Source: an uncultured Verrucomicrobiae bacterium | GTDB lineage: Bacteria > Verrucomicrobiota > Verrucomicrobiia > Chthoniobacterales > UBA10450 | Assembly (NCBI GenBank): GCA_963834385.1 | Contig: CAWIBO010000002.1 | Location: 1,184,001-1,248,000 of the forward strand | Direction of reading: 5' to 3' | DNA length: 64,000 nt | Shown: positions 51,412 through 54,343 of the stretch, piece by piece | Numbering within the stretch: position 1 is the stretch's first letter | How the letters are laid out: each line of letters begins with the position of its first letter | Translations under genes and position numbers: made by a program | Notes under the pieces: generated by a model | Database searches by the model: none | What the model was told of the DNA's origin: nothing | The model's input: only the letters and a program-made list of their open reading frames with translations

Positions 51412-52021
51412 CCAATTCAGCCGTTACGGCATTCTTTTCGTGGTCTCCGCGCCCTCCGGCGCGGGCAAGACGACCCTGTGCGACGCGTTGCGGCAGACAC
51501 CCGATTTCATCTACTCCGTTTCCTGCACGACGCGGCCGCCGCGCGCGGGCGAGATCGAGGGCGAAGATTACCAGTTCATGGCCGAGGACGAGTTTCTCCG
51601 GCGCGTTAAGGGGAATGAGTTCCTGGAGCACGCCCAGGTGCACGACCATTACTACGGGACGCTGCGCGCCCCGATTCAGGCGCACCTGAGGGAGGGCGTG
51701 GATGTGCTGATCGACATCGATACGCAGGGCGCCGCCGCCATCCGTGACTGCGATGATGCTTTCATTCGCGAAGCCCTCAGCGATGTCTTCATCATGCCGC
51801 CCGACCTGGAGGAGCTGCGGCGGCGGCTGACCAAGCGCGGGACGGAGACGCCGGCCCAGATCGAGCGGCGGCTCCAGACCGCCGCGCGTGAAATGGAGCT
51901 GTGGCGCGACTATCGTTACACCATCATCAGCAAATCCATGGAGGAAGACCTCCTGAAGTTCAGGCACATCATGGGCGCGGAGCGAATGGCCAGCCGCCGA
52001 CTGATCCGGAGCGGAGGATAA
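51404..52021 (+). CDS. gmk: Guanylate kinase
   Basis: SAPSGAGKTT, SVSCTTRPPR.GE..GEDY, YYGT, DIDTQGA. Confidence 0.95.
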   Translation: MSNQFSRYGILFVVSAPSGAGKTTLCDALRQTPDFIYSVSCTTRPPRAGEIEGEDYQFMAEDEFLRRVKGNEFLEHAQVHDHYYGTLRAPIQAHLREGVDVLIDIDTQGAAAIRDCDDAFIREALSDVFIMPPDLEELRRRLTKRGTETPAQIERRLQTAAREMELWRDYRYTIISKSMEEDLLKFRHIMGAERMASRRLIRSGG

Positions 52022-52638
52022 TGAAAAGGAAGCCTGCGCGGACAAAACCGATCGGCTCGAAGGACCAGGCGGGAAAAGGAAGCGGCCGTTCCGTCGTCCT
52101 GGGGGTGACCGGCTCAATTGCCGCCTACAAGTCAGCCGAACTGGCCAGCCTGCTGGTGAAGCAGGGCCACCGCGTCACCGTGGTGATGACAAAGGATGCC
52201 ACCGAGTTTGTCACGCCGCTGACACTGCAAACGCTTTCCAAGAACCCGGTCATGACCAGTTTCTATGATGAAAAGGAAAGCTGGCGCCCGGGACACATCG
52301 AGATCGCCGACAAGGCGAGCCTGGTGGTGATTGCCCCGGCTACGGCGCACGTCATCGCGGAACTGGCGCAGGGGCTGGCCGGTCATCCGCTGGCGGCGAT
52401 CGCCCTGGCCACGCGCGCCCCGATCCTGGTGGCGCCGGCAATGAACGGCAAGATGTGGGAGCACCCCGCCACGCAGGCGAATGTGGCCCTGCTGAAAAAG
52501 CGCGGGGTCGAGTTTATCGGGCCCGAAGCCGGCATGCTCGCCTGCGGCTACGAAGGCGTCGGTCGTCTCTGGCAGGTGAACGACATCGCCTTCCGCGCGG
52601 AGTTTCTCCTGGCGCGGCAGGACAATCTCCTCGCGTGA
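52021..52638 (+). CDS. coaC: Phosphopantothenoylcysteine decarboxylase (stand-alone)
   Basis: [35 protein letters not shown]. Confidence 0.92.
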
Positions 52639-53288
52639 AGTTTCTCGTCACCGCGGGCCCGACGCGGGAGCCGATCGATCCCGTGCGTTTCCTGAGCAAC
52701 CGTTCGTCGGGGCGGATGGGGTACGCCCTGGCGGAGGCGGCGCGCGCGGCCGGGCACGAGGTGACACTGGTGAGCGGGCCGGTGGCGTTGCCAGCGCCCG
52801 CCGGGGTGGAGGTGACACGGGTTGAGACCGCGGCGGAGATGCTGGCGGCGGTGCGGGCGGCGCTTCACGGCGCGGAAGTGGTCATCCTGTGCGCCGCCGT
52901 GGCCGATTACCGCCCGCGAACGATCGCCACGCGAAAGTTGAAGAAGACCGAGGCGACGATGGTGCTCGAGTTGGAGCGCACGACCGACATCCTGGCGGAG
53001 ATCGCGGCGGCGCCGCGCTCGTTTCTCCTCGCGGGGTTCGCCGCGGAGACGAATGACGTCGCGGAGAACGCGCGGCGAAAACTCGCGGCGAAAGGATGCG
53101 ACGCGATCGTGGCGAACGATGTCAGCGGAACCGAAACGGGAATGGAAAGCGATGAGAACGAAGTGGAAATTTTCTTTCGTGAAGGCGCTTCACGAAAAAT
53201 TCCACGCGCTTCGAAGCAAAAAATCGCGCGCGAGCTCGTGAAATTATTTTTTGAGATGCATCAAAAAAGTTTGACAAAAAATTCGTGA
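52635..53288 (+). CDS. coaB: Phosphopantothenate-cysteine ligase (stand-alone)
   Basis: [43 protein letters not shown]. Confidence 0.92.
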
Positions 53289-53298
53289 TGATTAGTCA
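53262..53298 (+). promoter_or_regulatory. Sigma-70-type promoter candidate for the Lys-rich micro-ORF
   Basis: TTGACA at 53271-53276 flanked by A-tracts inside the AT-enriched 3' end of coaB; -10 only weak (TAGTCA 53293-53298). Confidence 0.5.
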
Positions 53299-53367
53299 AC
53301 GTGGTAAGTGAACACGACAAAAGAGTTCACACCCACCGCGATTGCGGATTGAAAGGGGGGATACCTC

Positions 53368-53442
53368 ATGCCAGCAAAGAAGAAAGCTGCTAAGAAAAAA
53401 GCTGTTAAGAAAAAGTCGGCCGCTAAGAAAAAGAAACATTAG
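53368..53442 (+). CDS. 24-aa Lys/Ala-rich micro-protein MPAKKKAAKKKAVKKKSAAKKKKH
   Basis: AAAGGGGGGA Shine-Dalgarno-like run just upstream of ATG, clean frame to TAG, downstream terminator; below ORF-track cutoff. Confidence 0.75.
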   Translation: MPAKKKAAKKKAVKKKSAAKKKKH

Positions 53443-53503
53443 TTTCGTCAGGCAGACTTAATGGAACCCGAATCTCTTTCGGGCTTCCGCACGCAACTTC
53501 AAC

Positions 53504-53542
53504 CCGGGAGGAGAGCGCAAGTTCTCCTCCCGGTTTCTTTTT
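53504..53542 (+). terminator. Rho-independent terminator
   Basis: CCGGGAGGAGAGC-GCAA-GTTCTCCTCCCGG 13-bp stem with GNRA loop, followed by TTTCTTTTT. Confidence 0.88.
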
Positions 53543-53596: not shown

Positions 53597-54343
53597 ATGA
53601 CGGAGTATCTCGAGGCGGCGGTGACGGCGGCGCGCAATGCCGGCGCCCTCCTGCGCAACCACTTTGGAAAGCCGCTCGAGGTCAACGAGGTGGCCCGGCA
53701 CGACATCAAGCTCGAGATCGACGTGCGGACGCAGGACCAGATCACCCGGGAACTGCTCGGGCGCTTTCCGGCGCACGCCCTTTATGGCGAGGAGGGAATC
53801 GTGGGCGACCAGGCGAGCGAGTTCCAGTGGGTGGTCGATCCGCTCGATGGCACGGTCAACTTCTTCTACAGCGTCCCGCACTTCTGCGTTTCCATCGCCC
53901 TGCGCCAGGCCGGGCGGATCATCCTCGGCGTGATCTACGATCCGATGCGGGACGAGCTTTGGCAGGTCGGCGAAGGCGAGCCGGCGCGGCTCAACGGGGA
54001 ACCGTGCCGGGTCAGCCGGCGGACCGAGCTTTCCGAGGCGATTCTTTCGGTGGGGCTTTCCAAGACGGGAACCACGATCGAGGCGGGTCTGCCGTTGCTG
54101 CAGAGCTTCGTGCGGCGCGCGCGCAAATGCCGGATGATGGGCAGCGCGGCGCTCGACATGGCCTACGTGGCCTGCGGCCGGCTCGACGCCTACATTGAGC
54201 CCGGGGTGAGCCTGTGGGATATCGCCGCGGGCAAGATCCTGGTGGAGAATGCAGGCGGACGGGTGGAAATGACCGAGCGAACCGATTTCAAGAACAAGTA
54301 CAGCGTGGTCGCTTCGAGCGGCCTGCTCGACCTGCAGCCATGA
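53597..54343 (+). CDS. suhB: Inositol monophosphatase family protein
   Basis: GEE, WVVDPLDGTVNF, GSAALDMAYVACGRLD, WDIAAG. Confidence 0.88.
   Translation: MTEYLEAAVTAARNAGALLRNHFGKPLEVNEVARHDIKLEIDVRTQDQITRELLGRFPAHALYGEEGIVGDQASEFQWVVDPLDGTVNFFYSVPHFCVSIALRQAGRIILGVIYDPMRDELWQVGEGEPARLNGEPCRVSRRTELSEAILSVGLSKTGTTIEAGLPLLQSFVRRARKCRMMGSAALDMAYVACGRLDAYIEPGVSLWDIAAGKILVENAGGRVEMTERTDFKNKYSVVASSGLLDLQP

Follow-up and report, generated by a model that had tools for sequence, protein, structure and literature searches.

What, if anything, is encoded between coaB and a suhB-like gene in the genome of an uncultured Verrucomicrobiae bacterium? In the stretch of DNA that was analyzed (64,000 nucleotides, hereafter the window), this interval carries an open reading frame for a peptide of 24 amino acids (MPAKKKAAKKKAVKKKSAAKKKKH; positions 53368 to 53442, + strand), and the frame is kept in relatives. 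Its translation holds 13 lysines and no acidic residue, just as a first-pass annotation of this DNA had it. By share of lysine, the peptide ranks first among the 41,059 ATG-started frames of 15 to 150 amino acids found genome-wide, with the runner-up at 0.33, and a single copy fitting the micro-ORF pattern is present in this genome. Searches of Pfam, NCBIfam, and the PDB with the window peptide gave no matches. Upstream lie gmk, coaC, and then coaB (52638 to 53288, + strand; C-terminal half of TIGR00521), whose last codons overlap the micro-gene promoter. The coaC and coaB genes are separate here (window 52021-53288), and the overlapping -35 element constrains the last residues of CoaB. The downstream neighbor, which lies outside the unit, is an inositol monophosphatase family gene (53597 to 54343, + strand; PF00459), and this suhB-like gene scores below every NCBIfam cut-off.

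The first-pass annotation had described a self-contained transcription unit, and each element that it listed (TTGACA, leader repeats, Shine-Dalgarno sequence, reading frame, hairpin, and terminator) was found where it had been placed. The -35-like hexamer TTGACA (53271 to 53276, + strand) is set amid A-tracts, and TTGAC is found upstream of 45 of the 48 syntenic orthologs, which suggests a role in the promoter. A possible noncanonical -10 element, TAGTCA (53293 to 53298, + strand), follows after a 16-nt spacer, and in the ortholog leaders compared TA recurs at a distance of 16-17 nt. A consensus sigma-70 scan found no full promoter and did not accept TAGTCA 16 nt past TTGACA, so a canonical promoter with a canonical -10 is not supported; a genome-wide profile downstream of TTGAC[AG] (47 sites) likewise gave no clear -10.

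Two inverted repeats are present in the leader. The first, GTGAAC/GTTCAC (53308 to 53330, + strand), is represented by GTGAA...TTCAC in all 23 family loci, with a variable loop. The second, CCGC/GCGG (53336 to 53347, + strand), lies immediately 5' of the Shine-Dalgarno sequence; 42 of 49 loci retain its stem, three have a wobble variant, one has a compensatory variant, and three are unpaired as parsed. RNAalifold recovered only this second hairpin from the family leaders, and without covariation. The first of these repeats may be an RNA hairpin, a degenerate DnaA-box-like DNA site, or both.

The extended Shine-Dalgarno sequence (53351 to 53362, + strand) is predicted to form 12 pairs with the 16S tail of the same genome. 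Its strength had been pointed out already, and at -17.2 kcal/mol it is equaled by none of 2,083 heuristic gene calls. Downstream of the frame, a 3' UTR hairpin (53463 to 53488, + strand) has arms of differing sequence and scores z < -2 in 16 of 23 family loci. It is followed by an intrinsic terminator with a G-rich 5' arm and an anti-SD-like 3' arm (53504 to 53542, + strand; 13 pairs, with the stem at 53504-53533 plus a U-tract). The terminator had been called the clearest of the window and is indeed the best there, ranking sixth of 221 genome-wide with all five stronger ones outside the window. Compensatory change is seen at four of 11 terminator pairs, and the stem motif (G-rich 5' arm, C-rich 3' arm) is kept in 44 of 48 orthologs. 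The 3' arm (window 53504-53533, and in orthologs) resembles the 16S anti-SD, and its sequence is kept across the order; comparable arms are also present behind look-alike genes of Nitrospira and Acidobacteriota, though not in every lineage. A control using hairpins from the fetched loci (42 hairpins, 38% of them pairing at -9 kcal/mol or better, vs. 74% of 68) was left unused because it probably contained missed copies of the same terminator.

Is the frame a gene? Loci of relatives were fetched by way of the neighboring genes rather than by the peptide. In the coaB-suhB region, the frame proved to be conserved, in line with the first-pass proposal: a lysine-rich frame with the same Shine-Dalgarno sequence is present in 25 of 30 suhB loci, and 48 syntenic orthologs were obtained in all. 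A Lys/Ala/Pro frame adjoins coaBC in all 26 same-family genomes with a fetched neighborhood, this genome included; G014 stands outside this count because it gave no neighbor (coaC) match, and G026 likewise lacks a coaC match. In other families of the order, the micro-gene follows coaC in 23 of 28 assessable genomes, lies upstream of suhB in G038, and is found at a different place in G040. It was found neither after coaC nor by pattern in G025, G037, G033, and G078. The last two are reduced genomes of 0.9 Mb each (L044, L045), and their congener G239 (2.5 Mb) encodes a form of 58 aa.

The orthologs, whose counts include the unpublished genomes G002 and G007, range from 17 to 34 aa inside the family (this maximum, alone among the conclusions, depending on the unpublished genomes, namely on G002) and from 22 to 110 aa outside it. 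Among their 1,935 residues, there are no acidic and no aromatic ones and only nine Leu or Ile; Lys makes up 43% and Arg 2.5%, and residue 2 is always Pro or Ala. The script that collected them demanded 30% Lys and a Shine-Dalgarno sequence, and imposed neither the absence of acidic and aromatic residues nor the Pro or Ala at position 2. In 25 genes, Ala is encoded by each of its four codons (45/41/39/31) and Lys by a mix of AAA (154) and AAG (133). Runs of at least nine A occur in none of these 25 genes vs. 8.9 expected by synonymous reshuffling, with the caveat that the genes are related and not independent. Ribosomes slide on poly(A), so the mixing of codons and the lack of such runs fit selection for a translated peptide and against poly(A) ribosome sliding. 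A further codon argument did not survive. The first-pass annotation had read the use of GCT and GTT as a sign of high expression, and GCT does account for an unusual four of six Ala codons in the window frame vs. 6% in the genome; however, the ribosomal-protein, elongation-factor, and chaperone gene sets use GCT at just 5-9%, and the preference is absent among the orthologs. The identity of the locus as a known noncoding RNA, which had been named as a possible refutation, is not supported by an Rfam 15 search, in which no family matched (best E 1.1, 19 of 70 bits). Overall, the conserved frame with its own Shine-Dalgarno sequence, promoter-like site, and terminator bears out the description of a self-contained mini-gene, and judged by its sequence the locus is almost certainly a protein-coding gene.

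Public RNA libraries offer a view of possible transcription. The query was an ortholog, L148, whose lineage is sampled more often than that of the window. Contigs from all eight RNA-library runs examined (eight studies; 22 runs listed) cover the L148 unit, which is weak evidence for its presence in RNA libraries, as contigs carry no strand or level and may include DNA. In five runs (X5, X13, X15, X16, X20), the contigs are confined to L148:1107-1346, and in three others (X4, X8, X9) the flanking genes are covered too. At the terminator U-tract, three X5 contigs run into adapter and one X15 contig has a clean end, and one in X16 reaches the U-tract and then continues with unlike sequence; these ends are a weak hint that an RNA 3' end lies at this site. 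Coverage gaps and depth were not used because the runs were found via the L148 stretch itself, because conservation may be higher in the unit than in its flanks, and because some short pieces come from other organisms.

The promoters of many relatives carry a second type of signal. The 9-mer that was searched for is the DnaA-box consensus, and the copies found are nearly always TTATTCACA. Of 52 loci, 22 have a perfect box in the 150 nt upstream, vs. 0.7 expected from shuffles. Within 100 nt, it is found in 20 of 48 loci (seven of 25 in the family and 13 of 23 others), and 11 of those 13 nonfamily loci have two or more boxes. The first copy overlaps the -10 region in orthologs, and in seven of 25 family loci a perfect box sits at the position of leader inverted repeat 1. 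In the window, the promoter contains no box even when one mismatch is allowed. Tandem boxes occur at the micro-gene promoter in all five genomes searched; tandem copies were otherwise limited to two sites, including one before dnaA. In G027, the 405 nt preceding dnaA contain no box.

In the genome of the window (G000), boxes of the TTATTCACA type are found in tandem before dnaA (C2:718999), as a cluster of four at rsmA (C3:313698-313753; rsmA boxes recur in G027 and G032), and singly near mreB/rpe (C3:103580), ku (C5:103711), a PafA/Dop-like (Pup-ligase/Dop-like) gene (C5:671009), and a fabF-like gene that has a hybrid kinase gene divergent from it (C2:49241). From their positions, these sites are possibly a DnaA or cell-cycle regulon, and the 11-bp hexamer repeat would presumably also fit an OmpR-type regulator. 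The idea that the micro-gene locus is an origin of replication is not supported, since dnaA is ~520 kb away, the contig skew minimum is ~150 kb away, and no box cluster is present in what is an incomplete assembly.

Similar frames can be found well beyond the order. A pattern scan that covered 16 of 64 parts of GTDB gave at least 119 loci, or an estimated ~500 overall, and this is an undercount because the pattern fixed the Shine-Dalgarno sequence and the first and last codons. In 113 of the 119 loci, the frame is 14-81 aa long (median 18) and at least 40% Lys; 111 of the frames lack acidic residues, and although the pattern does not impose a frame, the stop that it matched is in frame in 110 of the 119 loci. 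By their record titles, the loci belong to about ten bacterial phyla and five DPANN archaea. Verrucomicrobiota include Candidatus Udaeobacter and Chthoniobacterales, in which leaders and terminators match those of the window's family and by inference place the window there. Other taxa include Nitrospirota, Acidobacteriota, Methylomirabilota, Chloroflexota, Elusimicrobia, Phycisphaerae, Bipolaricaulota, Vulcanimicrobiota, and delta- and gamma-proteobacteria. Three records (L122 of the Woeseiaceae, L103, and L125) may be binning errors, because their peptides and flanks match records of other phyla. Given the low complexity of the look-alikes, homology and convergence are both possible. Beyond the order, 25 loci were inspected downstream of coaC and none showed the micro-gene; the pattern likewise had no match in three families of the class (0 of 14, 0 of 8, and 0 of 4).

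The gene context of the look-alikes varies between phyla and gives no functional pointer (78 heuristic ORFs from 42 loci, searched against Pfam). In Methylomirabilota and some Nitrospirota (L104, L114, L124, L135, L150, L154), micro-ORFs follow genes for nucleotidyltransferase, HEPN, or HVO_A0114 domains. Two tandem micro-ORFs are present in each of L124, L176, and L201, and longer Lys/Val/Ala repeat ORFs occur in L123 and L164 (38 and 81 aa, respectively); the one in L123 comes after mfd and is itself followed by a second lysine-rich frame. The first-pass remark that such a peptide would be invisible to standard annotation was borne out by an exact-match look-up of ten peptides of up to 110 aa, none of which is present among 15 billion catalogued proteins. 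A comparison of the 110-aa ortholog with proteins of 30-59 aa gave no match at E <= 10. The ESM Atlas holds hypothetical look-alike clusters of 46-70 aa, one of them with HC2 in 17% of its members. No description of the micro-gene family was found in the literature searched, which included few subscription journals, and small-protein catalogues may contain some members.

What might the peptide do? We favor, with a probability of roughly 0.55 and by analogy with better-known proteins, a minimal polycation resembling the tail of histone H1 that acts on the nucleoid. The gene would be transcribed as a single-gene mRNA of ~240 nt with hairpins protecting both ends, and maximal loading through the Shine-Dalgarno sequence would yield many copies of the peptide. 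Removal of the initiator Met, probable given the invariable Pro or Ala at residue 2, would leave a disordered polycation of 23 residues. This product is predicted to bind the DNA backbone without sequence preference and to neutralize and compact the nucleoid as do the Lys/Ala/Pro tails of histone H1, Hc2, and AlgP. If charge density alone matters, length would be free to drift, as it might have done between 17 and 110 aa. More tentatively, the DnaA-box-like array over the -10 and leader in many relatives might couple peptide supply to the replication cycle.

The free variation in length, the Lys/Ala/Pro make-up, the sub-cut-off likeness of long orthologs to H1-like families, and the box motif that many ortholog promoters share with dnaA speak for such a role, as do published observations; the lack of a box at the window's own promoter and the uninformative neighbors in other phyla speak against it. 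Peptides with KPAA repeats are reported to bind DNA in vitro (PMC9239181), and DNA condensation is described for Hc1 and Hc2, in the latter case by pentamers (PMC2848022). A condensed nucleoid is reported for Chthoniobacter flavus (PMC2647929). Against an exclusive role, condensed nucleoids are reported for Verrucomicrobium and Prosthecobacter too (PMC2647929). In this genome, a sole HU/IHF-family match was returned (G000:C1:192421-192690) from a genome that is 89.6% complete, and matches should not be equated with copy numbers. Also against the favored reading, an AKK-repeat tail is already present in this genome, at the N terminus of a DksA/TraR zinc-finger protein (L251:234-965, G000:C3) that presumably resembles DdbA of Streptomyces.

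Composition alone cannot tell DNA from RNA or polyphosphate as the ligand, and the best surviving rival, which we consider rather unlikely, is that the peptide mainly binds RNA or the ribosome, as a polyamine-like RNA chaperone, a translation damper, or a loosely bound ribosomal protein. Its size is like that of eL41, bS22, and bTHX, and the extreme Shine-Dalgarno sequence together with the anti-SD-like terminator arm would be compatible with RNA-level feedback. The six-fold variation in length and the lack of aromatic residues are unlike a protein that has a fixed pocket; there is also no PDB match, and no ribosomal-protein family appears in the 78 neighbor ORFs scanned. A separate ORF of 34 aa, rich in Lys and Arg, lies elsewhere in the genome (G000:C2:314864, - strand) and is taken by us to resemble small ribosomal proteins of the bS22/COX24 type, which weakens the case for this role. 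On the other side, lysine-rich low-complexity regions are reported in ribosomal proteins and RNA binders (PMC6821194), and Hc2 itself is described as having higher affinity for RNA (PMC2848022).

Polyphosphate is an improbable target. Here the peptide would coat polyphosphate granules, or serve as a general gene-encoded substitute for polyamines with no preferred polyanion. AlgP is reported to localize to polyphosphate granules, which its KPAA tail positions (PMC9239181), and the C. flavus nucleoid encloses electron-dense granules (PMC2647929). A ppk gene is present in this genome, but no polyphosphate gene is found among the Pfam-named neighbors, and the promoter motif also occurs at dnaA, mreB, and ku. 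Furthermore, two spermidine-synthase-family matches in the genome mean that polyamines need not be missing.

Still harder to sustain is an action in cis or as RNA, either as an attenuator for suhB-ispF-cysS whose terminator would be switched by translation of the lysine-rich frame, or with a structured RNA as the product. The hairpins and the terminator sequence are conserved, and of 221 hairpins the terminator has the 3' arm that pairs best with the gene's own Shine-Dalgarno sequence. However, enforcing this pairing costs 19.3 kcal/mol, a gap that led us to reject a switch between the Shine-Dalgarno sequence and the terminator as energetically disfavored. Which genes lie downstream also varies from family to family, and 11 loci of other phyla have a convergent Pfam-named gene there. 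An Ala/Pro/Lys make-up maintained over up to 110 codons and the lack of an Rfam match argue for the peptide as the product. Finally, a cationic toxin or antimicrobial silenced by RNA structure in the manner of type I toxin-antitoxin systems would match the small size, high positive charge, and structure flanking the Shine-Dalgarno sequence, but is very improbable given the lack of a hydrophobic segment (nine Leu/Ile and no aromatics per 1,935 residues), the one pattern copy at a housekeeping locus stable across the order, and a Shine-Dalgarno core predicted to be mostly unpaired.

If the peptide does act on the nucleoid as an H1-like polycation, it would bear on a problem of some breadth. Chthoniobacterales include abundant soil bacteria. 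The factor that condenses nucleoids in PVC bacteria is named as an open question (PMC3177640), and the micro-gene offers a cheap and directly testable candidate, as the peptide can be synthesized. It cannot be assumed to be a general PVC condensing factor, because the gene was unseen in the 25 coaC loci outside the order and missed by the pattern in three families of the class. The orthologs of 17-110 aa provide a natural experiment on the minimal length of an H1-like tail. Tryptic proteomics and length-limited gene callers would miss such a peptide, and if the look-alikes in other phyla act alike, microproteins that bind nucleic acids would be an abundant class that has escaped notice. The most far-reaching version of this idea seems doubtful to us: a large uncatalogued "micro-H1" class of 14-35 residues in about ten bacterial phyla plus DPANN that, in Chthoniobacterales, would be dosed by DnaA with replication and be the missing nucleoid-condensing factor.

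The family was compared with known systems of several kinds. Protamines are Arg-rich, tiny, stand-alone polycations, and the micro-gene peptide is likewise tiny and stand-alone; with Lys far exceeding Arg in the orthologs (43% vs. 2.5%), however, the first-pass label "protamine-like" does not fit. The very small basic ribosomal proteins eL41, bS22, and bTHX (20-35 aa), which gene callers easily overlook, are constant in length and in their Arg-rich sequence, whereas the micro-gene family is similar in size but variable in both sequence and length and has no PDB match. Chlamydial Hc1 (HctA) has a Lys-rich DNA-binding region and comes from the same superphylum as the micro-gene host, but its conserved N-terminal dimerization domain is lacking here, and the Pfam Hc1 model gave no matches with the window peptide and 13 longer sequences tested.

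Likeness to chlamydial Hc2 (HctB; PF07382, NF038052) and to NF038053, the Burkholderia-type histone H1-like protein, is closer, since the family shares repeats of two to three basic residues with Ala, Pro, Val, or Thr and, like Hc2, varies in length with repeat number (17-110 aa). Among the 13 longer orthologs tested, eight match PF07382 HC2 and eight match NF038053, with E values down to 2e-7 and all below cut-off; the best scores are 31.8 of 40 bits for PF07382, 20.8 of 135 for NF038052, and 29.3 of 80 for NF038053, and the 24-aa window peptide has no score against the Hc2 and NF038053 profiles. These sub-cut-off matches and the ortholog make-up support the earlier view of a composition like that of H1 tails and Hc2. 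Hc2 is described as a protein of 165-237 aa with a separate C-terminal domain (PMC2848022), whereas the micro-gene orthologs are repeat only, with no C-terminal domain and a longest syntenic form of 110 aa. By analogy, then, the product would resemble Hc2, Hc1, and NF038053 proteins in action but, given these scores and this architecture, is no member of them. With the KPAA tails of Pseudomonas AlgP and PhaF and the C-terminal tail of histone H1, the peptide shares Lys, Ala, and Pro, an expected disorder, and a lack of acidic residues. Those tails are fused to folded domains, whereas the micro-gene appears to encode the tail alone, with a promoter-like site and a terminator of its own.
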